This document shows positions 2,023-20,299 of a DNA stretch of 64,000 nt, in pieces (within the stretch, counting starts at the first letter, position 1; the number at the start of each line of letters is the position of its first letter). A program made the position numbers and the translations under genes. The notes beneath the pieces were generated by a model that worked only from the letters and a program-made list of their open reading frames with translations, did no database searches and was not told the origin of the DNA. The stretch comes from an uncultured bacterium (GTDB taxonomy: Bacteria > Acidobacteriota > Thermoanaerobaculia > Multivoradales > JAHZIX01), in contig CBDUPA010000001.1 of the NCBI GenBank assembly GCA_965368975.1, positions 768,001 to 832,000 of the forward strand, written 5' to 3'.

Positions 2023-2158
2023 GGGTACGCGGTACCTCCACTAGCAGTCGGCGGACTGGTTCAACCTTGCCGAAGTCGAGTATGGGGCACGAACGAGAGC
2101 GTGGCCAAGAAAGGTCAGGGGCTCGACGTCGCGTGCTTGCGAGAGGATTCGAAATGGA

Positions 2159-3346
2159 TCAGGGACTGGATGTCAAAGACAGGAGTTCTGTAAACAGCTG
2201 GCGATACACTTCGTGCCCGCGACGGCCGAAAGCGTCAAAGTATCCGGTGTACCACTGGCTCAGCGACGCGCCCGCCGCCTCGCTTGCCCGCACGTCCTCG
2301 GCCTCTTCGACACCGCCGGTACGCACGATGTGGAACTCCCGCTCGGAGTTGCCGCGCTCCGGCTTGCGCCTGTCCAGGTGAGCCCGCGCGGCACGCACCA
2401 GCGCTAGCGACTTCTCGCGCAATGGCCGGCCGCTGACACCGCCGCCGAAGTGACTCGAGAAATAGTCGAGCAGACGCTGCTCTGCGGGATTGGCGAGTGC
2501 CGGACGCAGGGCGTCATAGTCAGTCGAGGTGTTGCCGAAGTTGACGCCGTCGAAGCCAAGGTCGAGGAGCAGGTCGAGCAGTGCCGGTACCTGGCGCGGA
2601 TCGGTGTCGGTCGAGAACTTGACGATCACCGGCAACGGCGTGCCGCGGTGACGCAGAAAGCGTTCGGCCAGGGTGTCGAGACGCCGCCGCAGGTCCGCGT
2701 CCAGGACGTCCTCGGAGTCTTCGACTTGCGGCAGCTCCTCGGTGTTGGGGCAGCTCTCGTTCAGCTCCAGGAAGTCGACGCCGGCGTCGCGGTAGCGCTC
2801 CAGGCCCTCGATCAACGCGTCGAGCCGTGTGGCTTCCTCTTCAATGTCCGTCGTGGCACTGACGCTGGCGCCGATCGGGCAGCCGTCGACGCGCTCGAGT
2901 CGAGCCAGCCGTGCCGCGACGGTGGCATGCCCGTCGTTCGGCAGGCCGAGCCAGTTCGATGCCGCGCCGGAGGCGGGGTAGGGGGCGAAGGGCTGCGCGA
3001 TGCCGTGGCGCCGGTTGCCCGGGCGTGAGAGTTCCGTCGAGGTGCCCGCCAGGTACCAGCCGGCACCTTGGGCAGCGCACAGCTCGTAGCCCTCCCCGTT
3101 CTTGAACATGCCGGCGGCGTTGCCCAGGGGGGCGCGAAAGCGCAGGCCCCACAGCGTGCGGCTGAGCGATGCGGCTGGCGCGTAAGGAGTCGGTGGTGCT
3201 GCGACCAACCATTGCAGGAAGCGCTGGCGTCCGCGTGAATAGAGACGGACCGCGACGCGCGGTGGCATGCGGACCAGCCAGGGTCGTAGGCGGTCGTCGA
3301 GGCGGGCGAGCAGGGGAGCGGTGTAGGTTGAGACCAAGAATGTCAT
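2159..3346 (-). CDS. pyrD: Dihydroorotate dehydrogenase (FMN TIM barrel)
   Basis: GNAAGMFKNG, NWLGLPNDG, ELNESCPN, VKFS, GNTST, GGVSGRP and QWYTG motifs. Start trimmed from 3541 to ATG 3346; the exact start is uncertain. Confidence 0.8.
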   Translation of the reverse strand: MTFLVSTYTAPLLARLDDRLRPWLVRMPPRVAVRLYSRGRQRFLQWLVAAPPTPYAPAASLSRTLWGLRFRAPLGNAAGMFKNGEGYELCAAQGAGWYLAGTSTELSRPGNRRHGIAQPFAPYPASGAASNWLGLPNDGHATVAARLARLERVDGCPIGASVSATTDIEEEATRLDALIEGLERYRDAGVDFLELNESCPNTEELPQVEDSEDVLDADLRRRLDTLAERFLRHRGTPLPVIVKFSTDTDPRQVPALLDLLLDLGFDGVNFGNTSTDYDALRPALANPAEQRLLDYFSSHFGGGVSGRPLREKSLALVRAARAHLDRRKPERGNSEREFHIVRTGGVEEAEDVRASEAAGASLSQWYTGYFDAFGRRGHEVYRQLFTELLSLTSSP

Positions 3347-3571
3347 CTCCGGTATGGCCAGCGTGCGGCATTTCCGTGGCGCAAGGTATGTTAGCCCACT
3401 CGTGGCTACTCGACGCCGCCTCTCGCAGGCGGGCTTCTCGATGGAGAGCCCCTCCACGCAGCAGAGCCCTGCCGGGGCGCAACCGGTGCGGCGTGGCGAC
3501 GTATTCTTCTGTACGACTCGAAGGCGCCTATACCAACTCAAGGAGCCGACACCAACTCGAAGGAGACCGGT

Positions 3572-5413
3572 ATGCGTACCCTATTTCTCGTCTCGACCCT
3601 CTGTTTGACGGTTCTCATCCTGCTGGTCCTTGGCCTGACCGCGTGCGTCGACTCGAACTCGTCCACGTCGGAGACCGCCGATGCGGCCGCCACCGTGGCC
3701 CCTGAAGATGGCGTCACCATGAACGAAGTGGTTGGCGCCTTCCAGGGCGGAGACGTGGCGGAAGCCGTGCGCCTACTCGAGATCATGGTGGTCGAACAGC
3801 CCGAGAACGCTCGGGCCTGGAGCGTGCTGGGACAAGCGCGCGGCACGTTGGCGGGGCAGGGGCCCGAGGCCGATGATGCCTTGTTGCAGGCCGCGGTCGA
3901 CGCGTATACTCGGGCGCTGGAGTTGGACCCGACGCAGCGCGGCGCGGCCCTCGGTCTGGCTGGCCTGGCGGCGCGGCGCGGCGACACTGAGCAAGCGTTG
4001 GCGCGTCTCGAAGAGCTGGCCGCAGCCGGCGACGTCGACCTCAGCCAGGTCGAGCTCAATCCCAACTTTGCCGCCTTGGTGGGCGATCCGCGTTTCCAGG
4101 CCTTGCCACCAACCGCCGAGGATTTCGACGGACCCGCTTTCGTCGAGCCGGTGCGCGTTCTGCACGAGTGGCGCGGTGAGGCGCAGGGTGACACCTTCGG
4201 CTGGATCGCGCGCCGCCTGGGCGACGGCAGCGCCGGTGACGTCGATGGCGATGGCGTCGCCGACCTGACCACCTCGGCACCCAACAAGCAGCTGCACGAC
4301 GAGCAGCTGGAAGACCTGCCCAATGCCGGTCGCGTCTATGTTTATTCGGGCAAGACGGGGGATCTGCTCTGGACGCGGGATGGTACCACCGCGGGAGCCT
4401 TGCTCGGACAAGGTATCGAGACCGCCGGTGACGTCAATGGCGACGGTCGGTCCGACGTGCTCGCTGCTGCCCCGGGTGCCAACGTCGCCTATGTCTTCGA
4501 TGGTCGGGATGGTTCGACGCTGCTCGAAATCCAGGGCCACGACGGAGAGCAGTTCGGCCGTCACGTGCACGGGGTCGGTGACGTCGACGGTGATGGTCAC
4601 AGTGACCTGCTGATCGGCGCGCCGCGCTTCGATCCCAGCGAGACACTGCAAGACGCCGGCCGCGCTGCTCTCTTCTCGGGCAAGGACGGTTCGCTGCTAC
4701 GTCAGTGGCTGGGGCAAGAAGCCGGCGACCGGCTCGGCGAAGCGGTCGCAGGCAGCATGGTAGGCAGCGAGAATGGGAGACACCCGGTCTTCATTTTGGG
4801 CGCACCGGATGCCGGTGAAGGCGACCGCGGCCGCGTCTACGTCTACACCGAGCTCGCGGCCCAGGACGGCAGCAGCGAGACCGTGGGCGAGGGGGCCAAC
4901 TTCATCATCGACTCGGACGAGCAAGGCGCCGAGCTGGGCGGCATGTTCCTGAGCGTGATCGGCGATCTCGACGCCGACGGCGTGGACGACGTCTACGCGT
5001 CCGACTGGGCCCACGGTGCTCTCGGGCCACAAACCGGTCGCATCGTGGTGCATTCCGGGGCCACGGGGGAGCAGCTCCTCGAGCTGACCGGTGAAGCCTC
5101 GGGCAACGGCTTCGGCATCGGTCCCGCCGACGCCGGCGACGCCGACGGTGACGGTCACGACGACCTGCTCGTCGGTGCCTGGCAGCACGCCAGTGCCGCA
5201 CCGGCCGGCGGCAAGGCTTATCTCTACTCCGGCAGGGACGGCTCGCTGCTACGCACCTGGACCTGCCAGGTGATGGGCGACACCTTCGGCTTCGACGCTA
5301 CGCGCCTGGATGATGTCGACGGCGACGGCAAGATGGACTACTTGCTGACCTCCGCCTGGAGCGCCGTCAACGGTCCTCGTGCGGGACGCATGTTCGTGCT
5401 CGCGGGAGAGTAG
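3572..5413 (+). CDS. Lipoprotein with N-terminal TPR and FG-GAP (integrin alpha-like) beta-propeller repeats
   Basis: Lipobox LTAC after a hydrophobic signal; repeated GDVDGDG..D / GAP / GRVYVYSG motifs; AAGGAG RBS. Confidence 0.88.
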   Translation: MRTLFLVSTLCLTVLILLVLGLTACVDSNSSTSETADAAATVAPEDGVTMNEVVGAFQGGDVAEAVRLLEIMVVEQPENARAWSVLGQARGTLAGQGPEADDALLQAAVDAYTRALELDPTQRGAALGLAGLAARRGDTEQALARLEELAAAGDVDLSQVELNPNFAALVGDPRFQALPPTAEDFDGPAFVEPVRVLHEWRGEAQGDTFGWIARRLGDGSAGDVDGDGVADLTTSAPNKQLHDEQLEDLPNAGRVYVYSGKTGDLLWTRDGTTAGALLGQGIETAGDVNGDGRSDVLAAAPGANVAYVFDGRDGSTLLEIQGHDGEQFGRHVHGVGDVDGDGHSDLLIGAPRFDPSETLQDAGRAALFSGKDGSLLRQWLGQEAGDRLGEAVAGSMVGSENGRHPVFILGAPDAGEGDRGRVYVYTELAAQDGSSETVGEGANFIIDSDEQGAELGGMFLSVIGDLDADGVDDVYASDWAHGALGPQTGRIVVHSGATGEQLLELTGEASGNGFGIGPADAGDADGDGHDDLLVGAWQHASAAPAGGKAYLYSGRDGSLLRTWTCQVMGDTFGFDATRLDDVDGDGKMDYLLTSAWSAVNGPRAGRMFVLAGE

Positions 5414-5422
5414 ACGCCCTTC

Positions 5423-5483
5423 CCTTTGCTGTAGAAGATCTGCGATGATCTGAGAAATCTTCGTAGAAAACCTGCAGCAAAGG
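5423..5483 (+). promoter_or_regulatory. Stem-loop overlapping the RBS of the heptose operon's first gene
   Basis: cctttgctgtag (5423-5434) pairs with ctgcagcaaagg (5472-5483): 12 bp with one G-U. Inner helix aagat/atctt. The 3' arm contains the AAAGG SD-like motif ahead of ATG 5491. Confidence 0.45.
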
Positions 5484-5490
5484 AACTTCG

Positions 5491-6933
5491 ATGCAGCTAG
5501 CGGACAGGCAGCGCCCCGTGCGTTCTGTGGCGATTACCGCCAGCCATGAGCTGTTCAGCTCGGCCGAGGCGGCGCTGGACGAGGCCGTGCGCTTGCGCCT
5601 GGAGCGTCGCATCGAGATGCGGCGGCAGGCGCAAGAGAGTCCGACGTGGAGCCCGTACGCGGTCGAGAACACGCGGCTGGTGCGCTCGATCGAGGGTGGA
5701 GTCGACGATCTGAAATTCCTCTATCCGGTGCTCGACAACTTGCCGCTGCTGGTCTTTCCCTTACTTCACTATGCAGCCACCGGAGCGCGCCTGTGTTTTT
5801 ACGGCTCACCGGAGGCCTGCCGGGTGGTGGAGGTGGTCCGCGCCTACCTGCTCGAGATCGGCTGGTTGCGCGCCGCCGACGAGCTCTTGACGGTGGAGGA
5901 GGACCGCGAGCGGATTTCCTTCTTCCATTCCTTCCTGCGCAGTACCGACCCTTTCGCTGCGGGGCCGGACGACGGCATCCTGTGGACGGCCGCGGATCTG
6001 GTGCTGGCCTACGACGTGTGGCCCTGGCTGCTCGATCGCAGCATCGAAGAACACCACCTGCTGATCAACATGATCGCGCGCGACCGGATTTTCCCCGAGG
6101 GTGAGACGGAGTTCTTGCGACTCAACTACTTCGACCGCCTGTGCCCGGCCGGCCAGGAGCATGCCCTGGCGGTCAAGCAGCCGGACGTGATCGTCTTCAC
6201 TGGAGAGGGACGGCGAGGCCTGGAGCGGTTGAATCGCATCCGCGGGCAGTCGGAGGGAGCGCTGCTCGGCATCTTCCTGCGCGCCACTTGGCGTGGACTG
6301 CTCAGCCCCAAGGCGCTGTCGGTGCTCAAGGCGGTGCAGTACGGCATCCGGCGCAAACGCTACACGCTGCGCGACGGCGAGGGCCTGTCGCAGCGAGACG
6401 CCAGCCGCTTCGCGTCGGTGTTCTTCGGCGTGCCGACGCACGTCAAGACGGAGATCGCCGACCCCTTCATCCTCAAGGACGGCGACGGCTTCGAGGACGT
6501 CTTCGGCTACTACCGAGCGCTGTTGCAGCGCGTGGTCGACGCGGCGCCGTCGAAGGAAGCGGGCTATGCCCAGCTGGCCGAAGTGCACCCGTATGCCGAG
6601 CAGTTGTGGCAGCTGTCGCAGCGGTTACAGCCGCTGTGGGAAGAACTGCCCCTGTGGCGCCGCTGGCCGGAGTTCATCAACGACAAGATCGCGACCTACA
6701 ACCAGCGCCTGCAGCGTGAGTTCGAGGCCGCGGGTGTCGACGACGACCAGCCGCCCCTGCCGAGCTATTTCGCCGCCGACGGCAGCTTCCGACCGCAGCC
6801 GTCGCTGCCGCATGCCGATGTCGACGGCAGCCTCGACTACCTGCGACGCGTCTATCGGCCGCGGTTCGAGCAGGGGCGCCAGCGCTACAACCACGAGCTC
6901 GGTAACCACGAGCGAGGAGTGGCCTCATCTTGA
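5491..6933 (+). CDS. Hypothetical protein; putative divergent GT-A/MobA-like nucleotidyltransferase
   Basis: 480-aa ORF whose stop overlaps the hldE start. Spaced motifs VAITAS, KFLYPVLDNLPLL, ILWTAADL and DGDGFED resemble NTP-transferase signatures (inference). Confidence 0.5.
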   Translation: MQLADRQRPVRSVAITASHELFSSAEAALDEAVRLRLERRIEMRRQAQESPTWSPYAVENTRLVRSIEGGVDDLKFLYPVLDNLPLLVFPLLHYAATGARLCFYGSPEACRVVEVVRAYLLEIGWLRAADELLTVEEDRERISFFHSFLRSTDPFAAGPDDGILWTAADLVLAYDVWPWLLDRSIEEHHLLINMIARDRIFPEGETEFLRLNYFDRLCPAGQEHALAVKQPDVIVFTGEGRRGLERLNRIRGQSEGALLGIFLRATWRGLLSPKALSVLKAVQYGIRRKRYTLRDGEGLSQRDASRFASVFFGVPTHVKTEIADPFILKDGDGFEDVFGYYRALLQRVVDAAPSKEAGYAQLAEVHPYAEQLWQLSQRLQPLWEELPLWRRWPEFINDKIATYNQRLQREFEAAGVDDDQPPLPSYFAADGSFRPQPSLPHADVDGSLDYLRRVYRPRFEQGRQRYNHELGNHERGVASS

Positions 6934-8459
6934 TGCGCAAGACGAACGGATCGGATGTCCTGGCCCAGGCCGGGAGACCCCAGGCCGGGAGACCCCAGGC
7001 CGGGAGACCCCAGGCCGGGAGACCGCAGGCTGGAAGACCGCAGGCCGGAAGACAGGCGCCACCGTCGTTCGACGGGGTGCGTCTGTTGGTGGTCGGGGAT
7101 GTGATGGTCAACCGCTACTGGCAGGGAGCCGCGTCGCGCCTGGCTCCCGACGCGCCGGTGCCGGTGGTGCACGTCCACCACGACGAGGCGAGCCCCGGGG
7201 GGGCAGCGAACGTGGCGATGAACGCGGCGGTCTTGGGGGCTGAAGTGACCCTGCTCGGCGTTGCGGGCGACGACGTGGAAGCAGACGTACTGACGGCGCA
7301 GCTGGAGCAGGCCGGTGTCCGGGTCGACCTGGTGCGCGTCGCCGGCTCGCCGACCGTGCGCAAGCTGTGGGTGACCGGACGTGGGCAGCATGTCGTGCGG
7401 GTGGACTTCGAAGACGGCTTTCCGGGCCTCGAGGCAGCTAGCGTGCTGACGCGGCTACGGGAGCACCTGGCGTCGAACCAGGCGGTCGTGTTTTCGGACT
7501 ACGGCAAAGGAACCGTGCGCCAGCCGGCAGCCCTGATCGAGGCGACGCGGCTGTCCGGCTGTCCGGTGCTGGTCGATCCCAAAGGCAGTGACTTCTCGTG
7601 CTACCGCGGCGCCACGCTGCTGTCGCCCAACCGCGTCGAGTTCGAGGCGGCGGCGGGACCTTGCAGTGGTGACGCGGAACTGGAGCGCCGAGGCCTGGAT
7701 CTGCTGCGCGACCTGCGGTTGCAGGCCCTGGTGGTCACGCGCGACGCCGAAGGCATGACCCTGCTGCGCGACGAGGCGCCGGCCGTGCACGTGCCCGCAT
7801 GCGCGCACTGGGTCGAGGATGTGGCGGGGGCCGGGGACACGGTGATCGCGACCTTGGCGCTGGCGGTGGCAGCTGGCGTCGACTACCCGGCGGCGGTGCA
7901 TTGGGCCAACACTGCGGCCGGCGTGGTGGTGGAGAAGCCGCGGGTGGCGACGGTATCGGCCGCCGAGCTGGCACGGGTGGATTGCAGGTCGCCGCAGGTG
8001 GTGAGCGAGGCCGAGTTGTTGCGGCTGGTGTCCGCGGCGCGGGCGCGCGGCGAGAAGATCGTCATGACCAACGGCTGCTTCGACATCCTGCACGCCGGCC
8101 ACGTGCAGTACCTGGAGCAGGTGCGCCGGCAGGGGGACCGCCTGATCGTGGCGGTGAACGACGACGACTCGGTGCGCCGGTTCAAGGGGGCGAGCCGGCC
8201 GGTCAATCCCCTGGCGCAGCGATTGCGGGTGCTGGCGGGCCTGCAGGCGGTCGACTGGGTGGTGCCCTTCAGCGAGGACTCGCCGGACCGCCTCGTGTGC
8301 CAGGTCAAGCCGGACGTGATGGCCAAGGGCGGCGACTACCACCCAGACCAGGTCCCTGGCAGCCGCTGTGTGCGCGAGGCCGGGGGAGAGATCTTCATCG
8401 CCGAATTCGTCGAGGGGCATTCGACCAGCCGCCTGATCGAGCGTCTGCAAGAGCCATGA
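6930..8459 (+). CDS. hldE: Bifunctional heptose 7-phosphate kinase / heptose 1-phosphate adenylyltransferase
   Basis: VVGDVM, PGGAANVA, SDYGKG, VDPKG, DVAGAGDT (PfkB domain) plus TNGCFDILHAGH and KGGDY (cytidylyltransferase-like domain). Start is TTG 6930 or ATG 6933. Confidence 0.95.
   Translation: MMRKTNGSDVLAQAGRPQAGRPQAGRPQAGRPQAGRPQAGRQAPPSFDGVRLLVVGDVMVNRYWQGAASRLAPDAPVPVVHVHHDEASPGGAANVAMNAAVLGAEVTLLGVAGDDVEADVLTAQLEQAGVRVDLVRVAGSPTVRKLWVTGRGQHVVRVDFEDGFPGLEAASVLTRLREHLASNQAVVFSDYGKGTVRQPAALIEATRLSGCPVLVDPKGSDFSCYRGATLLSPNRVEFEAAAGPCSGDAELERRGLDLLRDLRLQALVVTRDAEGMTLLRDEAPAVHVPACAHWVEDVAGAGDTVIATLALAVAAGVDYPAAVHWANTAAGVVVEKPRVATVSAAELARVDCRSPQVVSEAELLRLVSAARARGEKIVMTNGCFDILHAGHVQYLEQVRRQGDRLIVAVNDDDSVRRFKGASRPVNPLAQRLRVLAGLQAVDWVVPFSEDSPDRLVCQVKPDVMAKGGDYHPDQVPGSRCVREAGGEIFIAEFVEGHSTSRLIERLQEP
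6966..7055 (+). repeat. 15-bp tandem repeat (caggccgggagaccc) x6 encoding (QAGRP)n at the HldE N-terminus
   Basis: Three perfect units at 6966-7010, then three degenerate units. Confidence 0.95.
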
Positions 8460-9724
8460 ACGACGAGCATCGCGAGCTGCGGGTCGACGTGGTGGTGATC
8501 GGCGGCGGAATCGCCGGTCTCTGGGTGCTGGCGCACCTGCGAGCGCGCGGTTACTCGGCACTGCTGTGTGAAGGCGGCGACCTGGGCGCCGGCCAGACGA
8601 TCGCGGCGCAGGGCATCATTCACGGCGGCATCAAGTATGCCCTGGCGGGTACACGACCCGGGGCGCTGCCGGATGCATCGCGCGAGCTGGCCGCGATGCC
8701 CTCGCACTGGCTCGCGTGCCTGCGCGGCGAGCGTGATCCCGATCTGCGCGCCGCGCAGCTGCAGTCGCCGCACCATTACCTGTTCACCGATCGACGACTG
8801 GGCACGCGCATGACGGCCTTCCTGGCGAGCAAGAGCCTGCGAGCACAGGTGACGCCGGTGGCGGCGGCCGACTTGCCCGAACTGCTAGCGCGCGGTGGCT
8901 CGCGTTTCGGCGGCGCGGCCTACCGGGTCGACGAGCCAGTGGTCGACGTACGCTCGGTGCTGGCGGCGCTGCGCGGCCACAACCTGCCGGCGCTGCTGGC
9001 CGTCGACCCCGCGGGGACCCATCTGGTGGAGCGCGACGGCGTCCTTGTGGGGGTCGATGTCGTGGCACGTGCTCCCTCCGGACAGAAACTGCGCCTGCTG
9101 TGCCAGCGGCTTGTGCTGACCGCCGGAGTCGGCAACGAGACGCTGTGTCGAGGCCTATCACGGCCACCGGCCATGCAGCGACGGCCGCTGCGCATGGTGT
9201 TGGTGCGCGGCAAGGGCGTGCAGCATCGCGACGGCTTGCCGTCCTTCTACGGCCACTGCGTGGCGACGGCCAGCGACAAGCCACGCTTCACCCTTGTCAG
9301 TTTCGTCGACGCACAGGGCCGATCGGGGTGGTACCTGGGGGGCCAGCTGTCCGAGAGCGGGGCGGACCGCGATAGCGTTGCGCAACTCGACGCCGCACGC
9401 GCGGAACTGGCCGCCGTGCTGCCCTGGATCAACCTCGACGCCTGCGAGATGACGACGCTGGCGCTGGATCGGGCCGAAGGACAGCAGGCGTCCGGCGGTC
9501 GCCCGGCGGGACCCGTGGTTGTCGACGACGGTGCGGTGACGGTGGTCTGGCCGACCAAGCTGGCCTTTGCGCCACGGGTTGCCGAGCAAGTCGAGGAGCG
9601 ACTGCGCCACGCAGGTGTGCGGCCGCAGAGCTCGCCCGACGGCACGACCGAGGCACTGCACTCCTGGCCGCGGCCGCGGCTGGCTGCTTGTCCGTGGGAC
9701 GAGGAGGCACGATGGCAGTCGTAG
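8456..9724 (+). CDS. FAD-dependent oxidoreductase (DAO/GlpD-like)
   Basis: DVVVIGGGIAG dinucleotide-binding motif, GQTIAAQGIIHGG, WPTKLAFAP. ATGA overlap with hldE fixes the start. Confidence 0.85.
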   Translation: MNDEHRELRVDVVVIGGGIAGLWVLAHLRARGYSALLCEGGDLGAGQTIAAQGIIHGGIKYALAGTRPGALPDASRELAAMPSHWLACLRGERDPDLRAAQLQSPHHYLFTDRRLGTRMTAFLASKSLRAQVTPVAAADLPELLARGGSRFGGAAYRVDEPVVDVRSVLAALRGHNLPALLAVDPAGTHLVERDGVLVGVDVVARAPSGQKLRLLCQRLVLTAGVGNETLCRGLSRPPAMQRRPLRMVLVRGKGVQHRDGLPSFYGHCVATASDKPRFTLVSFVDAQGRSGWYLGGQLSESGADRDSVAQLDAARAELAAVLPWINLDACEMTTLALDRAEGQQASGGRPAGPVVVDDGAVTVVWPTKLAFAPRVAEQVEERLRHAGVRPQSSPDGTTEALHSWPRPRLAACPWDEEARWQS

Positions 9725-10296
9725 CTCGCGGCCGGACCTCGCGTGCCTTCGTGCTGCTCGATCGAGATGGCACCGTGATCGAGAACCGCGGCTATGTCGG
9801 GGATCCCGAAGACGTCGTGCTGCTGCCCAACGCGGCGGCCGGCCTGCGCCGCTTTCGAGCCCTGGGCTACGGCCTGGCCCTGGTGACCAACCAGAGCGGT
9901 CTCGGCCGTGGCTACTTCGACACGCGGCAGCTGGCGGCGGTGCACCAGCGCCTGGCTGCCGTGCTCGCCGAAGAGCAGCTTGTCCTCGACGGCATCTACG
10001 TGTGCCCGCATCGACCCGAGGCGCAGTGCACCTGCCGCAAGCCGCAGCCGGGCCTGGGCCTGCAGGCAGCCGAGGAGCTGGGGATCGATCTGCGGCAGAG
10101 CGTCCTGATCGGGGACAAGCGAAGCGACATCGACTGTGGGCGCCGCCTGGGAGCTCGGACGATCCTCGTCCGCACCGGCTATGGCGCCGAGACGGAAGCG
10201 GCAGGCACCGTGCCATGCACTTACGTGGCCGGCGATCTCTACCAAGCTGCCGAGTTCACGGCAGCACTCGGACCAAGAAGGGAAGACTCCTCATGA
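9712..10296 (+). CDS. gmhB: D,D-heptose 1,7-bisphosphate phosphatase (HAD)
   Basis: LDRDGT, VTNQSG, CPH..CTCRKP and IGDKRSD motifs; GAGGAGG RBS. Confidence 0.92.
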   Translation: MAVVARGRTSRAFVLLDRDGTVIENRGYVGDPEDVVLLPNAAAGLRRFRALGYGLALVTNQSGLGRGYFDTRQLAAVHQRLAAVLAEEQLVLDGIYVCPHRPEAQCTCRKPQPGLGLQAAEELGIDLRQSVLIGDKRSDIDCGRRLGARTILVRTGYGAETEAAGTVPCTYVAGDLYQAAEFTAALGPRREDSS

Positions 10297-10952
10297 GGGA
10301 TGTCAAGATCGATGCAGCCTGGACCGCCGGAGCCAAGGACTACGTGCGCGAGTACATGCTCGGCACCATCCGGACGCAACAAGAAACGCTGGCCGTCTGT
10401 GAACCTGACATCATCGCCGTGGCCACGCTGCTGCTGCGTTGCTACCAGCAGGGGGGCAAGCTGCTGCTGTGCGGCAATGGCGGCAATGCCGCGACCTGCG
10501 AGCACATCGCCGGTGAGCTGGTGAGCGCCCTCAACCACGACATCGAGCGGCCGGGCCTGCCGGCGCTGTCTCTATCGCAGACCTCCTCGATGATCACCGG
10601 TCACGCCAACGACTTCGATTTCAACCTCATCTTCGAGCGCCAGGTCGAAGCCTTCGGTCAGCCGGACGACGTGCTGCTCGGGATCAGTACCAGCGGTAGT
10701 TCCAGGAATGTCGCCATCGCCATGCAGCTGGCGCGGCGGCGCGGCCTGCGCACGGTCGGCTTGACCGGCATGGATGCTGGAAGCGTCAGCGCTGCCAGTG
10801 ACCTGTGCGTGCGCGTGCCGAGCCGCAGTACGCAGTTCATTCAGGAAGCGCACATAGCGATTGGCCATATGCTGTGTGCCTTCGTCGAGGAAGGGCTCTA
10901 CACCGCTGCGATGGTGCCGCGGCTGGAAGTGTTCGCGCAGGTGTCGACCTGA
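10293..10952 (+). CDS. gmhA: Phosphoheptose isomerase (SIS domain)
   Basis: CGNGG, HIAGE, ANDF, FERQVEA, ISTSGSS and IQEAH motifs; ATGA overlap with gmhB. Confidence 0.9.
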   Translation: MRDVKIDAAWTAGAKDYVREYMLGTIRTQQETLAVCEPDIIAVATLLLRCYQQGGKLLLCGNGGNAATCEHIAGELVSALNHDIERPGLPALSLSQTSSMITGHANDFDFNLIFERQVEAFGQPDDVLLGISTSGSSRNVAIAMQLARRRGLRTVGLTGMDAGSVSAASDLCVRVPSRSTQFIQEAHIAIGHMLCAFVEEGLYTAAMVPRLEVFAQVST

Positions 10953-11809
10953 TGGCCGCCGCAGGACTGGAGACACCCGCGGCGGCCCGCCGGCTCTGGC
11001 GGTTCCTGGTGGTCGAGCTGGCGGACATCTGGACGCGCTTGCTGGAAGGCGCCATGGCGTCGCGCAGCGAGACGGCGGATTCACGGCTGGTGTGGGGCGT
11101 CGAGGATGAGCTGCGCCAGCGCACGGTGGCGTTCCTGGCGCAGCTGTACCCCGGCGTGCCGGTGAATGAGGAAGGGGTGTCGCAGTGGCCGCCGGCCGGT
11201 GATGCCTGCGTGCTCGACCTGGTCGACGGCACCAATAGCCTGCTCCTGGGCGCACCCTTCTTCGGCCTGCAGTTCGCGCTGGTGCGGGCGGGCACAGTCG
11301 AAGAGGCTGTCCTCTTCCTGCCGGCCGAAGAGCGCCTGGGCGGCGGTGGTCTCTACCGCGCCCGGCGCGGTGGCGGAGCCTTCTACACGCTGCAGGGAGA
11401 GACGGATGTGCGCCTGCGCGTCTCCGACCAGCGCGACCTCGCCAGCTCGACGATCGCCTTCGACGGCACGACGCCCAACGTGCGCAAGCTCTACCACCCG
11501 ACGTTGGTGTCGGCGGTCACCCGCATTCGCAACTTCGGTGCCTTCTGCTGGGCCGGCACGCGCCTGGCGCGCGGTCGTCACCTGCCGGTCAGTTGCGACG
11601 CCGTGGTGGCGATCGGCAACCGGCCCTGGGACCACCTGCCGTCGATCCTGCTGGTCGAGGAAGCGGGGGGCACAGTGAGTGGTCACTACGGGCCGTACTC
11701 GCTGACCGACTGCACCGAGCTCGTGCTATCCAACGGTCATCTGCACGCGGAGGTGCTGCGCCGGCTGCACGAGATTCTGCCGCCCCCGGCCGGTGCTGCT
11801 GCCGTATGA
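10952..11809 (+). CDS. Inositol monophosphatase family (FIG) phosphatase
   Basis: NEE, DLVDGTN (DPxDGT variant) and PWDHLPSILLVEEAGG; TGATG overlap with gmhA. Confidence 0.85.
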   Translation: MAAAGLETPAAARRLWRFLVVELADIWTRLLEGAMASRSETADSRLVWGVEDELRQRTVAFLAQLYPGVPVNEEGVSQWPPAGDACVLDLVDGTNSLLLGAPFFGLQFALVRAGTVEEAVLFLPAEERLGGGGLYRARRGGGAFYTLQGETDVRLRVSDQRDLASSTIAFDGTTPNVRKLYHPTLVSAVTRIRNFGAFCWAGTRLARGRHLPVSCDAVVAIGNRPWDHLPSILLVEEAGGTVSGHYGPYSLTDCTELVLSNGHLHAEVLRRLHEILPPPAGAAAV

Positions 11810-12396
11810 CGGGCGATACCGAGCGTCCGCTGATCCTGGTGCTGTGTGGCTGGCCGCTATCGGGCAAGACCTCGACGGCGGCACACCTGCAGCGCCGGCT
11901 CGACGTCCACGTGGCCGATGTCGACCGCATCGCCCACGCCGCGGTCGGTCCGCCCGAGCCGGACTGGCGTGCCACCGAAGCGGGGCGTCGGCGCAATCTC
12001 AACCGCATGGCGATGGCCTACGACATGCTGCACCACGCCGTGCGTGTCCACCTCGAAGTCGCCGAGCCGGCGCGCTCGCTACTGGTCGTGTCGACCTACT
12101 CGCGGACCAGCAGCTGGCAGTACCTGCAGCAGGTCCTGGCGCCGCATCCGCAGGTACGTCTGGAGATCGCCTGGCTGTGCCCGGTCGATGACTCGCCCGA
12201 GACGGTCGAGCGCTTGCTGGCACAGCGTTCGGACGCCTACCTGGGGGCCTGCACCAGTACCGCCGAGTACTTCGACGTCAAGGAACGCTTCGAAGCGCCA
12301 ACCTTGCCGCACCTGCGCGTCGACAGCTGGCTGCGCAACTCGCCGCAAGCCTGTGCCGGCCAGATCGCGGACTACCTGCGGAGCCAGGAGGCCTGA
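11806..12396 (+). CDS. Small P-loop kinase (AAA_33 / nucleoside- or gluconate-kinase-like)
   Basis: Walker A GWPLSGKT near the N-terminus followed by DVD; ATGA overlap. Confidence 0.8.
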   Translation: MTGDTERPLILVLCGWPLSGKTSTAAHLQRRLDVHVADVDRIAHAAVGPPEPDWRATEAGRRRNLNRMAMAYDMLHHAVRVHLEVAEPARSLLVVSTYSRTSSWQYLQQVLAPHPQVRLEIAWLCPVDDSPETVERLLAQRSDAYLGACTSTAEYFDVKERFEAPTLPHLRVDSWLRNSPQACAGQIADYLRSQEA

Positions 12397-13760
12397 TGCT
12401 GTTTCATCGCCGGTTGGACTACGACTATCCGACGATCGTGCGTGGAGAAGGCTGCACGCTGATCGATCGCGACGGCAAGACCTACTTCGACGCCGCCGGT
12501 GGCGCGGCGGTGGCGATCCTCGGCCACAGCGTCCGGGACCTGCTGCAGCAGGCTGTGGATCGAGTCGACTGGAGCTACCTGCACGGTGCACAGTTCACCT
12601 CGGAGGATCTCGAGACCTACGGTCGGCGCCTCGTCGAGCTGGTGGCGGGAACCTCCTCGTCGGAGAGCAACCTGTCGCACGTGCTGCTGGTGGGCAGCGG
12701 CTCGGACGCCGTGGAGACGGCGATCAAGCTGGTGTACCAGTACTCGCGAGCCAGTGCACCCGGTGCACAGGAGGGTGCGACCGGTCGACACGAGAAGGCC
12801 AAGATCATTGCCACCGAGCCGGGGTACCACGGTGCCACCGGGCTGGCTCTGGCGGTCACCGGCAAGGCCACGAACCGCCGTGCCTTCCAAGGATTGTTGC
12901 GCGAGCATCCTTTCGTCGCCGCGCCGGATGCCTACCGGCGACCGGCCGGGCAGAGCCTGGAGGCGCACGGCGAAGCCTGTGCCGAGGAGCTGGAGCGCGT
13001 CGTGCTGCGCGAGGGGCCGGAGACCTGCCTGGCTTTCCTGGTCGAGCCGGTGATCGGATCGGGCATCGGCGTTGGTGTGTCACCGCCGGGCTACCTGCGT
13101 CGCGTGCGCGACATCTGTGACCGCTACGACCTGGCGCTGATCTTCGACGAGGTGATGTGCGGCTTTGGCCGCTGTGGTGCCTGGACGGCGGCTGAACTGT
13201 GGGATGTTCAGCCCGACGTGTTGATCCAGGGCAAGGGACTGGCGGCGGGGCTGCTGCCACTGTCCGCGGTCTATGCCAGCCGCCGCATCGTCGACGGCAT
13301 TCGCGAGCACTCCGGCAACTTCCAGCACGGCTTCACCTTCACCAATCACGCCCTGGCGGCGACGGTGGGCAACCTGGTGCTCGACCAGCTGCAGCAGCAC
13401 GACCTGCTGGCCAACGTCCGCCACCAAGGGGAGTTCTTGCGTCGGCGGTTGCAGGAGCTGACGGCCTTCTCGTGGATCGACGACGTGCGGGGCCTGGGCC
13501 TGCTCAACGGCTTCGAGCTGGTGGCCGACAAGACGGCGCGGCGTTCCTTCGCGCGGTCGGAGCACGTCGCCGAGCGCTTCGTGCAGCGGGCGATGCACCA
13601 CGGCGGCAACTTCTACTTCGCGGTCGGCTACCTGCCCAACGGCGATGGCGATGCCATCCTGATGATGCCGCCCTACAACCTGACGAGCGACGGTGTCGAC
13701 CGGATGGTGGCGATCCTACACGCCACTGCCGGGGACCTGGACCGGGAGCTGAGACCTTGA
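12396..13760 (+). CDS. Class III PLP-dependent aminotransferase
   Basis: YFDAAGG, SGSDAVETAIK, YHG, VEPV, DEVMCGFGRCG, GKGLAAG and HGFTF motifs. Confidence 0.93.
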   Translation: MLFHRRLDYDYPTIVRGEGCTLIDRDGKTYFDAAGGAAVAILGHSVRDLLQQAVDRVDWSYLHGAQFTSEDLETYGRRLVELVAGTSSSESNLSHVLLVGSGSDAVETAIKLVYQYSRASAPGAQEGATGRHEKAKIIATEPGYHGATGLALAVTGKATNRRAFQGLLREHPFVAAPDAYRRPAGQSLEAHGEACAEELERVVLREGPETCLAFLVEPVIGSGIGVGVSPPGYLRRVRDICDRYDLALIFDEVMCGFGRCGAWTAAELWDVQPDVLIQGKGLAAGLLPLSAVYASRRIVDGIREHSGNFQHGFTFTNHALAATVGNLVLDQLQQHDLLANVRHQGEFLRRRLQELTAFSWIDDVRGLGLLNGFELVADKTARRSFARSEHVAERFVQRAMHHGGNFYFAVGYLPNGDGDAILMMPPYNLTSDGVDRMVAILHATAGDLDRELRP

Positions 13761-14845
13761 GTCACCTGGAGATCAAGACCGACTGCCGCCACTTCAACGG
13801 CTACAAACCCTGCCGGCCGCACAAGCAGCGCGGCGTCCACTGCGCCGACTGCGACAGCTATGCGCCGACCGAGGGCGACATCCTGATCATCAAGCTGGAG
13901 GCAGCGGGCGAGGTGCTGCGCAACACGCCGCTGCTGGCGCCGATCCGGCGGCAGTTTCCGCACGGCCGAATTTTCTGGCTCACCAAGTATCCGCAGCTGA
14001 TTCCCAAGGACGAGGTGTTTCGAGTGGTTGAGTTCGACCTCGCGGGGACGCTACTGGTGCAGGACATCGAGTTCGACCTGCTGCTGTCGCTGGACAAGGA
14101 CCTCGAGGCCTGCGCCCTGGCCAACCGCATTCGAGCCAAGGTCAAGAAGGGCTTCACACAGCGTTCCGGTGTCATCGTGCCGTTCGACGACGACAGCCGG
14201 ACGAAATGGCAGACCGGGGTGTTCGACGACCTGATGAAGGCCAGCACCGAGCACTACCTGGACGAGATCTTCAACATCTGTGGTTATACGTTCGACGGTG
14301 AGCCCTACGTGCTGCCCGAGTTCACGCCGCCGCGGGTCGAAGGGCTCGACGCCGGCAAGCCGCTGGTGGTGCTCAACACCGGCGCCGGAGACAAGTGGCG
14401 GCCGCGCATCTACTCGACGGTGGGATGGGTGCGGCTGGCGCAGGATCTGCTCGCCGGCGGGCGCAACGTGGTGATCGCCGGCGGCCCCGACGAGCACGAG
14501 AAGAACCAGCGCATCGCCGCCGACTCCGGAGCCTGCTACCCCGGGGTCTTCTCGTACGTCGACTTCCTCGGCCTGCTCAGCCTGGCCGATGTCGTCGTCA
14601 CGTCGGTGACCTTCGCGCTGCACGCCGCCATCGGCTTGCACAAGCCGGTCGTCACCCTCAACAACACCTTCAACCGGCACGAGATCTACGCCTACGCGCC
14701 GATCGAGATTCTGGAGCCCGATCTGCCGTGCCTGATGTGTTACAAGCAGGACTTCGACGACGCCTGCCTCCAGCACCACTGTCTGGACCTGATCACTCCC
14801 GGGCAGATTCGGCAGGCGGTCGAGCGCTTGCTGCGTGGGCTCTGA
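13757..14845 (+). CDS. Glycosyltransferase family 9 (heptosyltransferase-like) with N- and C-terminal Cys clusters
   Basis: IIKLEAAGEVLRNTPL, LNTGAG..W, GGPDE and LHAAIGL motifs; DCRHF..KPC..CxxC and CxxC..C..C. TTG start overlaps the upstream TGA, with a GGGAG RBS. Confidence 0.88.
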   Translation: MSHLEIKTDCRHFNGYKPCRPHKQRGVHCADCDSYAPTEGDILIIKLEAAGEVLRNTPLLAPIRRQFPHGRIFWLTKYPQLIPKDEVFRVVEFDLAGTLLVQDIEFDLLLSLDKDLEACALANRIRAKVKKGFTQRSGVIVPFDDDSRTKWQTGVFDDLMKASTEHYLDEIFNICGYTFDGEPYVLPEFTPPRVEGLDAGKPLVVLNTGAGDKWRPRIYSTVGWVRLAQDLLAGGRNVVIAGGPDEHEKNQRIAADSGACYPGVFSYVDFLGLLSLADVVVTSVTFALHAAIGLHKPVVTLNNTFNRHEIYAYAPIEILEPDLPCLMCYKQDFDDACLQHHCLDLITPGQIRQAVERLLRGL

Positions 14846-14881
14846 GCCAGCGGGCCGGCCCAATCTCCAACCACGGCCGGC

Positions 14882-16729
14882 TCAGTCTCCGACCACAGGA
14901 TGTGTTCGGGGCGTCGGAATCTCCGGCAACAAGGACGGCGGCAGGGATCTGCGGGGCGATGGAGCAGGGGCCGATTGATCCGCGGGGTGCTCTGCGCCGC
15001 GCCTGGCGATTCGACGCTGGCTGGTCGCCAGTGCGTCGAGCGTACGGGACCGTTGCTGCTCGGTCAGGTCCGGTAGCTCGTTCTGGACCAGGCGAGCCTG
15101 TTCGAGCAGGACGCGCGCACGCTCGGGCAGGCCGACCCGGTTGCACAACTCGCCCAGAGTGACGAGCAACTGCAAGCGCAGGGCCGGGTCGACGCTGGAG
15201 TCGCCGCCGAGTCCCGGCGGGTCGGCCTGGAGCAACTCCTGGAGTTGTGAGTCTTGCAGCAGAGGGTTCTGCACGAGTGGGTCGCCCGCCGGTTCGTCGT
15301 CGGCGCCGCTGTTCTGGGCCGGTGCTCGATCCGGGTGCGCCTGCAGCAGGGTCAGCAGGTGGCGAATGGTATGCGTCGCTTCGGCCTGCCGTGTTTCGGC
15401 CGCGGCAGCCTGGCGTCGGGCTTCGGCGCTCTGGAAGTGGTAGACGCTCAGGCCGCTGATCAGCCCGCTGATCAGCCCGGATATCACCACCAACAGGGCC
15501 GCCGCGGTCAGCGGGTAGCGGCGCATCGGCTGTATCCAGCGCCGGGCGCGGTAGCGTTGCGCGGCGCCGATCGGCTCGTCCGCCAGATGCCGGCGTAGGT
15601 CTTCGGCCAACTCGGTGGCCGAACCGTACCGGTGATCGCGCTCGCGGGCCATGGCCTTGAGAACGATTCGATCCAGATCGCCCTGCAGGCGGCGATTCAG
15701 CGACAGCGGCGTAGCGTCCCGGTCGGTGGCCAGATACCAGCGTTCGCGCGTCGGCAGCGCCGCCAGTCGCCGGCTCGGGGGTGGTGCGTCGAACTCGGAC
15801 ATGCGGCGCATGAAGGCGAGGACACTCTCTTCCTGACGCTCGAACGGGAGTTCACCGACCAGTAGGATGTAGAGCAGCACGCCGAGGGCGTAGATGTCGG
15901 AGCGGATGTCGGCGTCGGCACTGACGTCGGGTTTGTCGCTGAACAGCTCGGGGCTGACAAAGGCCGGCGTGCCTAGTAGCACGTTGCCCGTCCGCAGGCT
16001 CGGATCCGCGATGGTCGCGTCGAGGGTTTTGGCAATGCCGAAGTCGATGATCTTGGGCACCGCCAGGCCGCCTTGCTCGGTGACCAGCACGTTCTCGGGC
16101 TTGATGTCGCGGTGCAACACGCCCTTCTGGTGCGCGTGGTGGATGCCGGCACAGACGTCGAGAAAGAGTTCCAGGCGTCGCTCGATGTTCAGCCGCCCAC
16201 GGTCGCAGTAGCGCAGCAGGGACACGCCCGGCACGTGCTCCATGACGAAGTAGGGACGCCCGTCCGGTAGATCACCGGCCTCGTACACCTGGGCGATATT
16301 CGGATGGCTCATGCGCTCCAAGGCCTGCCTCTCGACCTCGAAGCGGTACATCAGTTTGCGCTGGTCGGGGCGTGCACGCGTGACCTTGACGGCCACCTGG
16401 CGCTCGATCGGCTCGGTCTGCTCGGCCAGGTACACGCTGCCCATGCCGCCCTCGCCCAGCAGCTCCAGCAGACGGTAGCGGCCGATGTACTCGGGCACGC
16501 TAGCCAGGCCGGTCGCGGTCGCAGAAGTAGCGGGCGGCAGCTCGATCTCGCGGCTCGGTGCCTTGGGTAGAAAGCCAGTGATTTCGAGCTGCGACGGCAA
16601 CAGAGACTCGGCCCAGCGGCGCAACTGGGGCGCATCGATACAGGCCTTCTCGATATAGGCCAAGCGTTGGCTTTCTGGCAATGCGGCGGCGGCCTCGACG
16701 ATCTCGATCAGGCGCTGCTGCTCAGCCAT
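14882..16729 (-). CDS. Membrane-anchored Ser/Thr protein kinase
   Basis: LGEGGMG, HRDIKPEN, DFG and GTPAFVSPE; N-terminal helical AAALP..R.AY...AC..LR...ESLL segment; TM helix. Start trimmed to ATG 16729. Confidence 0.92.
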   Translation of the reverse strand: MAEQQRLIEIVEAAAALPESQRLAYIEKACIDAPQLRRWAESLLPSQLEITGFLPKAPSREIELPPATSATATGLASVPEYIGRYRLLELLGEGGMGSVYLAEQTEPIERQVAVKVTRARPDQRKLMYRFEVERQALERMSHPNIAQVYEAGDLPDGRPYFVMEHVPGVSLLRYCDRGRLNIERRLELFLDVCAGIHHAHQKGVLHRDIKPENVLVTEQGGLAVPKIIDFGIAKTLDATIADPSLRTGNVLLGTPAFVSPELFSDKPDVSADADIRSDIYALGVLLYILLVGELPFERQEESVLAFMRRMSEFDAPPPSRRLAALPTRERWYLATDRDATPLSLNRRLQGDLDRIVLKAMARERDHRYGSATELAEDLRRHLADEPIGAAQRYRARRWIQPMRRYPLTAAALLVVISGLISGLISGLSVYHFQSAEARRQAAAAETRQAEATHTIRHLLTLLQAHPDRAPAQNSGADDEPAGDPLVQNPLLQDSQLQELLQADPPGLGGDSSVDPALRLQLLVTLGELCNRVGLPERARVLLEQARLVQNELPDLTEQQRSRTLDALATSQRRIARRGAEHPADQSAPAPSPRRSLPPSLLPEIPTPRTHPVVGD

Positions 16730-16933
16730 GGTGTGGGACTTGGCTGCCAAAGCTTCCCCTCTGGATCCAGCGAGTCCTGGTGACGCGGGCTCGGACGCTG
16801 GTTGTGGGTATCTCGTGGGCCGGCATCCAGGCCTTCCAGAGGTCCGGAAGGTCGAAGAATCCGACACATCATTGTGACCGGAAGTCCCCAAGGGGTCAAC
16901 ATGACACTCCCTGTGAGGGCTTTTCGTGAGTAG

Positions 16934-16948
16934 TGACACAAAATGTCA
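16934..16948. promoter_or_regulatory. TGACA-N5-TGTCA inverted repeat in a divergent promoter region
   Basis: Perfect 5-5-5 palindrome in an AT-rich patch between the kinase and CAP genes. Confidence 0.35.
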
Positions 16949-17073
16949 GAGGGTGTTCGGGTTTTGACTCAGTGCCGTGAGCCGATCCGCAAGGGGCCTG
17001 CCGCCAGCAGGTCCTCGACGCCGGGACGAAGTGGTGTGGCTCTTGCATCGATTTGGAGTTACAGGAGGTTCTC

Positions 17074-18060: not shown

Positions 18061-18145
18061 CAGCGTGCTTCGAGTTGCCCGTTACCCACCCGTCTTTGGG
18101 TGACTGGTTGAGAGGGACATCGAGAAACTCCTATTATTAGGAGCT

Positions 18146-20272: not shown

Positions 20273-20299
20273 GATGTGTCCATAGAGTCTACTCGAGGC

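Follow-up and report, generated by a model that had tools for sequence, protein, structure and literature searches.

Nine consecutive genes at positions 5491 to 14845 of a 64,000-nucleotide stretch of DNA from an uncultured bacterium of the phylum Acidobacteriota (the whole stretch is referred to below as the window) may form a self-contained and horizontally mobile operon that makes a glycoconjugate or small molecule with a modified heptose, and not the inner core of lipopolysaccharide (LPS), a reading to which we assign, from sequence comparison and structural models, a probability of roughly 40%. The 9.4-kb unit, in a window of about 67% G+C, joins nucleoside diphosphate (NDP)-heptose supply, tailoring and transfer in a conserved and experimentally tractable pathway. 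The amination, the site of the amine and the product are inferred, and the second, aminated and separately activated unit would probably be derived from heptose.

All nine genes lie on the forward strand according to the open reading frame listing and the mapping of starts. The first, g1 (5491-6933), encodes a 480-aa orphan protein with a predicted GT-A/MobA-like nucleotidyltransferase fold and a C-terminal helical domain. It is followed by g2 (from ATG 6933, or TTG 6930, to 8459) for bifunctional HldE, g3 (8456-9724) for an FAD oxidoreductase of the PA4991 family (GR2/DAO type, with a GlpD-like active site), g4 (9712-10296) for a GmhB-like HAD-IIIA phosphatase, g5 (10293-10952) for a GmhA-like SIS-domain sedoheptulose-7-phosphate isomerase, g6 (10952-11809) for a phosphatase of the inositol monophosphatase (IMPase) family, g7 (11806-12396) for an AAA_33-type P-loop kinase, g8 (12396-13760) for a class III (omega-type) pyridoxal-phosphate (PLP) aminotransferase and g9 (TTG 13757 to 14845) for a divergent, Cys-rich GT9 glycosyltransferase. 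Stop and start overlap at each of the eight junctions, from g1 to g9 by 1 (4 if hldE starts at TTG 6930), 4, 13, 4, 1, 4, 1 and 4 nt, the types being in order TGATG/TTGA, ATGA, the 13-nt overlap, ATGA, TGATG, ATGA, TGATG and TTGA. All eight were reproduced as a preliminary description of this DNA had first given them, and its gene identities and gene order stand as well, g1 being "NTP-transferase-like" at the level of the fold only. The G+C content at third codon positions (0.79-0.90) compared with that at second positions (0.39-0.53) marks all nine genes as coding, and none of the nine proteins has a membrane-like segment. A scan of positions 5200-15200, weak and uninformative at 67% G+C, returned no sigma-70-like promoter, no terminator-like site on the forward strand and a single one on the reverse strand.

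The same gene order is found in distant bacteria. Of 11 genomic loci recovered with members of the g1 family, three hold all nine genes in this order at 47-69% identity, in Corallococcus llansteffanensis, Myxococcus vastator and "Comamonas" sp. KCTC 72670. Two more are cut by contig ends: a contig of a "Deltaproteobacteria" metagenome-assembled genome (MAG) carries g1-g8 at 63-88% identity and then ends, and one Corallococcus contig ends inside g2. The junctions in the orthologous loci overlap or are at most about 18 nt apart, and the tight packing and unchanged order of all nine genes in three other loci show that the arrangement is more than chance. The synteny for which the preliminary description had suggested looking is thus present. 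Closer to the window, g1 was found neither in 40 relatives of its genome nor in 400 other genomes of the phylum (1 of 401 with its own), and it had no match in 72,556 plasmid records. Since g1 was not found in these relatives and genomes, whereas the nine genes occur together in distant bacteria, the operon appears to be an accessory unit that has moved between phyla as a block.

The genes g2, g4 and g5 represent the canonical supply of ADP-heptose. The product of g2 scores 616.3 bits with NF008454, above the equivalog cut-off of 521 for HldE, the bifunctional heptose-7-phosphate kinase and heptose-1-phosphate adenylyltransferase, and has a PfkB domain (PF00294) at residues 52-341 and a CTP_transf_like domain (PF01467) at residues 379-473. 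For g4 the top-scoring family is GmhB, the heptose-1,7-bisphosphate 7-phosphatase, and the HAD-IIIA model TIGR01662 is passed with 113.5 bits against 44.6; for g5, which has a SIS_2 domain, the GmhA models are the top-scoring families, and a genome search found no other gmhA-type gene. No HldD epimerase is encoded in the operon, and no protein of the genome passes TIGR02197 (the best match has 145.9 bits against 274.6), which suggests that the D,D form of the heptose is used. The preliminary description had noted that the operon has no hldD, no waaC, waaF or waaP and no gene for 3-deoxy-D-manno-octulosonic acid (Kdo); this holds, with the qualification that the genome carries further heptose-related genes elsewhere. 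A second hldE-like gene, 34% identical, adjoins another GT9 gene on contig 2 (320323-322901, L030), and a third GT9 gene on contig 4 (84865-85512) brings those beyond the operon to two. The 5' end of hldE contains a tandem repeat (6964-7053, forward strand; six copies of 15 nt, 94% matches, score 145 in Tandem Repeats Finder) that encodes an (AGRPQ)6 N-terminal extension, uses the rare AGA codon and is without counterpart in the orthologues. Translation of hldE might instead begin at an in-frame GTG (7077); if that is the real start, the repeat is intergenic and the overlap of g1 and g2 is void.

The tailoring enzymes that set this operon apart include a flavoenzyme and an aminotransferase. 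The protein encoded by g3 belongs to the PA4991-family GR2 oxidoreductases and matches PA4991 of Pseudomonas aeruginosa (PDB 5ez7) over its full length (E 9.7e-78, residues 7-415 against 5-388). The counterparts of His53, Arg316 and Lys345 of PA4991 are retained in it, as are the motifs QGIIHGG, DRAE and WPTKLA. These three residues are common to glycerol-3-phosphate dehydrogenase, whose arginine binds phosphate, and according to the structure paper PA4991 itself has no known substrate (PMC4741190). A g3-like gene is present in two of the 40 relatives, and in one of them (L029; G003 contig 19, 897000-916900) it lies about 3 kb from a gene for a 546-aa HldE-like protein with the domains reversed, the cytidylyltransferase-like domain first and PfkB second, in a sugar cluster with a DegT aminotransferase, a transketolase, epimerases, a GT2 and a methyltransferase. 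Such genes thus adjoin hldE-type genes in independent contexts; at E <= 1e-30 they occur in 3 of 301 genomes of the window's class, too few for an analysis of co-occurrence with hldE. The product of g8 reaches 264 bits with PF00202 (cut-off 30.5) and matches PDB 3i4j at E 4.9e-69, and no NCBIfam equivalog is passed, the best being NF005685 with 360.6 bits against 485.

Both g3 and g8 are retained in every orthologous operon seen, that is, in the three complete loci and in the one cut after g8, so that none of these orthologous loci lacks the oxidoreductase and the aminotransferase, an arrangement that the preliminary description had named as speaking against its proposal. A more distant relative of g9 (31% identity, L059) does stand beside hldE and gmhA without either enzyme. 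The preliminary description had proposed that oxidation and transamination yield an amino-heptose, an interpretation that is supported in part. A flavoenzyme and an aminotransferase acting in turn on sugars have good precedent in GenQ/GenB1 and SepI/SepG; the placing of the amine on the heptose, the carbon that would carry it and the stage at which it would be added are tentative.

The genes g6 and g7 form a pair that recurs in other bacteria. The g6 protein falls in the IMPase family (PF00459, 43.5 bits against 27); TIGR02067 gives 62.6 bits, far under its cut-off, as are the top named matches, HisN (histidinol-phosphatase) and FBPase/IMPase, and IMPase, SuhB and HisN structures in the PDB are matched at E of about 1e-10 to 1e-11. 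Its NEEG, DLVDGT and WDHLP...EEAGG motifs are invariant in five orthologues and presumably correspond to the canonical metal-binding motifs of IMPases. For g7 the Pfam matches to AAA_33 and KTI12 are weak and under cut-off, and no curated model covers the kinase family, for which the alignment gives the signature CGWPLSGK[ST]; in the ESM Atlas all ten named matches are AAA_33. Three of the ten metagenome loci found with g7 have g6 and g7 adjacent in the same order. In L016 the pair is followed by a GT9 gene related to g9 (hhalign probability 96%). In L021 it is part of a polysaccharide cluster with GmhA, a GHMP kinase, GmhB and an NTP_transferase, which is a GDP-heptose set, and with a small HldE-C-like cytidylyltransferase, so that two kinases, two phosphatases and two nucleotidyltransferases stand together as in the operon. 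In L015 it accompanies a methyltransferase, a sulfotransferase and an adenosine 5'-phosphosulfate (APS) kinase. For four of the ten loci the contigs are too short or have no informative neighbour. In L015, the genes for the IMPase and the kinase enclose one for a 399-aa protein, which was considered as a relative of GT9 and rejected (hhalign probability 2.5%).

The remaining enzyme of the presumed tailoring set, the product of g1, has no match in Pfam or NCBIfam and none among PDB profiles at E <= 10. Its AlphaFold (AF2) model (pLDDT 84.4, pTM 0.87) has a GT-A/MobA-like nucleotidyltransferase fold: the top structural match is 2dpw (Z 15.4, rmsd 3.2, 228 aligned residues; Foldseek E 2.1e-6), GlmU (Z 13.3) and IspD (Z 12.5) are also matched, and PntC, inositol-1-phosphate cytidylyltransferase and LicC stand lower in a list of 59 chains with Z of at least 8. 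The ESM Atlas leads to NTP_transf_3 clusters, in agreement with this fold. The protein keeps GGVDDLKF..L...P, of which we take the GGVDDLK stretch to resemble the "DK" motif of MobA, and its family is small, with 26 proteins among 5.8 billion. A second g1 paralogue occurs in a four-gene module with a 252-302-aa protein of an unknown family, an APH-family kinase and a flavin amine oxidase, a make-up that recalls aminoglycoside-modifying enzymes. This module (L012 9911-15349; L008; L010 9706-15265) directly follows the operon in three loci of Myxococcaceae and stands alone, at 55-63% identity, in a Thermoanaerobaculia MAG; it was not found in the genome of the window.

The transferase that ends the operon is a member of GT9 (PF01075, 27.1 bits against a gathering cut-off of 22), and the suspicion of the preliminary description that it is not an ordinary WaaC or WaaF is borne out by 31.3 bits against the 185.3 required for WaaC (TIGR02193) and 30.1 against 134.6 for WaaF (TIGR02195); WaaQ (TIGR02201) gives 18.4 against 170.2. 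Two Cys4 clusters, C10/C19/C29/C32 and C325/C328/C337/C342, distinguish g9 and follow in its clade the patterns C-x8-C-x9-C-x2-C at the N-terminus and C-x2-C-x8-C-x4-C near the C-terminus, with seven of the eight cysteines invariant across 13 diverse members and C337 nearly so. The clade is widespread and uncharacterised. It comprises at least 425 proteins at E <= 1e-10, many of them 45-59% identical, from Geobacter (e.g., Geobacter metallireducens, about 50% identical), Verrucomicrobia, Phycisphaerae, Cloacimonetes and a Woesearchaeota MAG, and 17 of the 400 other genomes of the phylum carry a member 26-34% identical to g9. Of 14 neighbourhoods examined in the phylum, six have in common ksgA, a radical SAM/SPASM gene and a small GT2, while hldE occurs in one, together with two gmhA genes. 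A GT9 of 28% identity is also found in a secondary-metabolite cluster on a Streptomyces plasmid, with rfaE2, a radical SAM enzyme, a P450 and a carbamoyltransferase.

These properties of g9 bear on two further explanations, both of which are less likely than the modified-heptose operon and than the two alternatives considered below. According to the first, the locus is an ordinary operon for the heptose of the LPS inner core, in which a WaaC/WaaF-type GT9 acts on Kdo-lipid A and the extra genes are passengers. The only gmhA-type gene of the genome is indeed located here, and the neighbourhoods of distant relatives of g9 are of the envelope-glycan kind, with ksgA and genes for GT2 and a Wzt ABC transporter; however, g9 is far under the cut-offs of WaaC, WaaF and WaaQ, no Kdo or lipid A genes are present in the flanks, the nine genes travel together across phyla and yet g1 is found in none of the 40 relatives, and eight overlapping junctions argue against passengers, so that this explanation is highly improbable. 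The second holds that g9 heptosylates a protein in the manner of TibC/AAH, with the Cys4 fingers serving assembly or substrate binding. In TibC an iron finger of four cysteines in the C-lobe is needed for oligomerization and substrate recognition, and the enzyme uses ADP-D,D-heptose (PMC4358343), which can be compared with the two conserved Cys4 clusters of g9, one of them in the C-lobe, and with the genome in which no HldD was found. We consider it very improbable all the same: the profile search of solved structures with g9 returned at E <= 10 only WaaF and WaaC, weakly (E 0.015-0.07), and not TibC, no autotransporter lies nearby, and g1, g3, g6, g7 and g8 would be left unexplained.

Under the modified-heptose reading, the GmhA-, HldE- and GmhB-type enzymes would make ADP-D,D-heptose in one branch. 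Beyond HldE-N, GmhB and HldE-C, the operon encodes exactly one more kinase (g7), phosphatase (g6) and nucleotidyltransferase (g1), together with one oxidase-aminotransferase pair and one glycosyltransferase. A second branch may start at heptose-7-phosphate, where g3 would oxidize the hydroxyl next to the phosphate ester. The simplest substrate would be the C6-OH of D-glycero-D-manno-heptose-7-phosphate, because its C6-OH/C7-OPO3 end mimics sn-glycerol-3-phosphate, the type of substrate suggested by the active site. The ketone would be turned by g8 into an amine, giving an amino-heptose phosphate, and g7, g6 and g1 would act as a second triad, parallel to HldE-N/GmhB/HldE-C, that activates the aminated unit. 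Finally, g9 would join the heptose units or transfer them to an acceptor not encoded in the operon. A branch at heptose-7-phosphate would be the most economical scheme, and it fits the occurrence of g3-like genes beside hldE-type genes, that of the g6-g7 pair beside heptose and GT9 genes, and the doubled triad of L021. As a non-canonical second route to an amino-heptose activated by a nucleotide, the scheme is unlikely to be correct in every detail, that is, with oxidation of heptose-7-phosphate at C6 by g3, formation of the 6-amino compound by g8, activation by the triad and coupling with ADP-heptose by GT9 to a new aminated heptoside, and with PA4991, which is reportedly essential for infection, being by extension a heptose-phosphate dehydrogenase.

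Several observations weigh against the reading of the locus as a modified-heptose operon. Two of the three supply enzymes fall below the cut-offs of their own families, g4 just under for NF006506 (167.4 bits against 178) and under for TIGR00213 (126.3 against 149.6), g5 for TIGR00441 (163.4 against 209.45) and NF010546 (167.3 against 276). As this is the only gmhA-type gene of the genome while an hldE-like gene and two GT9 genes lie elsewhere, the operon may also feed other heptosylation. The clade of g9 is widespread, and 13 of its 14 neighbourhoods examined in the phylum (L049-L062) have none of g1-g8. Three of the ten g7 loci have other partners, namely a sulfotransferase with APS kinase, a NUDIX gene and a Pol-beta nucleotidyltransferase. 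PA4991 was inactive on glycerol-3-phosphate and dihydroxyacetone phosphate (DHAP), assayed with NAD(P)(H) only, and on 41 amines (PMC4741190). In g1 the loop after strand 1 reads A-[ST]-A-S-H-E and not GxGxR. The glycine-rich GxGxR loop is a hallmark of sugar-phosphate and MobA-like nucleotidyltransferases. The main counter-evidence comes from the relatives of g1. In the tree, g1 of the window is sister (100/100 support) to a Burkholderia/Trinickia clade. The one locus of this clade that was fetched, from a Trinickia MAG (L003 7351-15519), encodes beside g1 two flavoenzymes, one FMO-like and one of the DAO type, as well as a HAD phosphatase, a CDP-alcohol phosphatidyltransferase, a class III aminotransferase different from g8 and a desaturase of the sphingolipid delta-4 type, and heptose genes are lacking within 10 kb. 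The locus may serve to make an aminated head group of a lipid, and it suggests that the substrate of g1 need not be a heptose and may be an aminated alcohol phosphate unrelated to it.

The Trinickia locus leads to an alternative in which the amine is placed on an acceptor other than heptose. In the way that glycerol-3-phosphate is converted through DHAP to serinol phosphate, g3 and g8 would make the phosphate of an amino-alcohol or amino-polyol; g7 would supply or restore the phosphate, g1 might activate the compound as an NDP- or CDP-alcohol, GT9 would heptosylate it from ADP-heptose and g6 would dephosphorylate it last, which is the logic of kinase, transferase and phosphatase in pathways for compatible solutes and head groups. 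The GlpD-like active site of g3 and the IMPase-kinase-GT9 trio of L016 fit such a route, and the top named match of g6, although far under its cut-off, is a phosphatase of an amino-alcohol phosphate, histidinol-phosphatase. A precedent exists in Campylobacter jejuni, where Cj1437 converts DHAP to serinol phosphate, which has to be attached before the phosphatase Cj1435 acts (PMC11800397). Against it, DHAP is abundant and a dedicated glycerol-3-phosphate oxidase seems superfluous, g3-like genes stand beside hldE-type genes in independent contexts, and the flavoenzymes and aminotransferase of the Trinickia locus are not orthologues of g3 and g8, there being no g3 match and an aminotransferase only 28.6% identical to g8. 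On balance this alternative is rather unlikely. The preliminary description had also thought of a cyclitol-like acceptor, an idea that has been weakened and that we rank low, given that myo-inositol-1-phosphate synthase (PF01658) was not found in the 99.3%-complete genome.

The other partners of g7 suggest that its substrate may be linked to a nucleotide. It can thus be imagined that g7 phosphorylates ADP-heptose, on the 2'- or 3'-hydroxyl of the ribose or on the sugar, to give a private donor for GT9, and that g6 removes the phosphate from the by-product or the product. Ribose 2'- or 3'-phosphates are known in CoA, 3'-phosphoadenosine 5'-phosphosulfate (PAPS), NADP and CDP-phosphoramidate 3'-phosphate, and zeta toxins phosphorylate the sugar of UDP-GlcNAc. 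The proposal is in line with the uniform AAA_33 assignment of g7 in the ESM Atlas, and one relative of g7 (P0148, 408 aa) is fused to a NUDIX domain that scores 22.7 bits (cut-off 21.1), while the gene of another immediately follows a NUDIX gene (L019 616-1793), which points to a nucleotide-linked substrate. The g6/g7 pair with sulfotransferase and APS kinase in L015 and weak matches of g6 to models of bifunctional NADP phosphatase/NAD kinase and of 3'(2'),5'-bisphosphate nucleotidase tell in the same direction. Cj1415-Cj1418 provide a precedent by making CDP-phosphoramidate 3'-phosphate (PMC11800397). The case is nevertheless quite improbable, because g6 scores higher with HisN and FBPase/IMPase than with the nucleotidase models and g1 is left unexplained. 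A relationship of g7 to APS kinase is not supported, the similarity being confined to the region around the P-loop (hhalign probability 20%). Moreover, we know of no phosphorylated ADP-heptose.

Returning to the modified-heptose operon, literature searches found no description of this gene set, in line with the preliminary description, which had not recognized it as a described pathway; supplementary cluster tables might hold one. The operon resembles the LPS pathway of ADP-heptose in its GmhA-type isomerase, its bifunctional HldE at equivalog level, its GmhB-type phosphatase and its GT9-family transferase, and differs from it in the lack of HldD, the absence of Kdo and lipid A genes nearby, the eight conserved cysteines of the GT9 and the five further enzymes translationally coupled here. 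With the biosynthesis of septacidin it would share a heptose unit on which FAD-dependent oxidation and PLP-dependent transamination place an amine: SepB, SepL and SepC supply the heptose, and the FAD oxidase SepI and the aminotransferase SepG lead to L-heptosamine (PMC9978623). In that system, a GMC oxidase (SepI) and a DesI-like aminotransferase (SepG) work on C4' once adenine carries the heptose (PMC9978623), whereas the operon has a PA4991/GlpD-like flavoenzyme, a class III aminotransferase, no epimerases and an extra kinase, IMPase and nucleotidyltransferase. The 6'-amination of aminoglycosides by GenQ/GenB1 (Neo11 homologue) is similar in that a flavin-linked dehydrogenase oxidizes the side chain of a sugar to an aldehyde or ketone, which a PLP aminotransferase then aminates, and different in that the substrates are pseudo-oligosaccharides without phosphate (PMC4039129), while g3 is of another family with a phosphate-binding arginine. 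PA4991 itself is paired with the aldo-keto reductase PA4992 (PMC4741190), and g3 is coupled to hldE, gmhB and the aminotransferase.

In the capsule decoration of C. jejuni, compared here by description, a nucleotidyltransferase and a kinase build the activated decorating group, transamination takes place next to a phosphate ester, a phosphatase acts after transfer and the glycan contains heptose (PMC11800397); the operon has no glutamine kinase or amidoligase. None of the LPS, septacidin, GenQ/GenB1 and C. jejuni systems shares the tailoring enzyme families of the operon. TibC/AAH are GT-B heptosyltransferases that use ADP-D,D-heptose, with a Cys4 metal finger in the C-lobe (PMC4358343), and an N-terminal beta-barrel and a beta-hairpin thumb mark their group. 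In its sequence, g9 shares with them the presence of a C-lobe Cys4 cluster; it shows no detectable sequence match to TibC, spaces its cysteines differently and has a second, N-terminal Cys4 cluster. KdnB of the Kdo8N system is an iron-type alcohol dehydrogenase, of another family than g3.

Heptose pathways are known from the LPS core, from capsules and from a few antibiotics such as septacidin and hygromycin B. The operon couples canonical ADP-heptose genes to families not so far tied to heptose chemistry, including the PA4991-type flavoenzymes, a class III aminotransferase, the AAA_33 kinase, the IMPase relative, the 26-member nucleotidyltransferase family and the Cys-rich GT9 clade. If the proposed pathway is correct, a new aminated heptose or heptoside will be defined, PA4991, whose structure was solved in 2016, will gain a testable class of substrate in the heptose phosphates, and the IMPase-kinase cassette that recurs beside heptose and GT9 genes in unrelated bacteria will gain a function. 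ADP-heptose derivatives are agonists of innate immunity, and new ones would interest that field. A 9.4-kb unit with no membrane proteins should, in addition, be easy to express and reconstitute.

The neighbouring genes (window 445-5413 and 14882-22063) encode two Ser/Thr protein kinases, FG-GAP/ASPIC repeat proteins, TPR proteins, a CAP-domain protein and, in the flanks, a protein resembling dihydroorotate dehydrogenase. Genes for tRNAs, transporters, mobile elements, Kdo or lipid A were not found among them, and no regulator or transporter is obviously tied to the operon. Just past the stop codon of the GT9 gene, a 22-nt direct repeat in two copies (14853-14896, 86% matches) sits in the convergent junction with a Ser/Thr kinase gene on the reverse strand (14882-16939).

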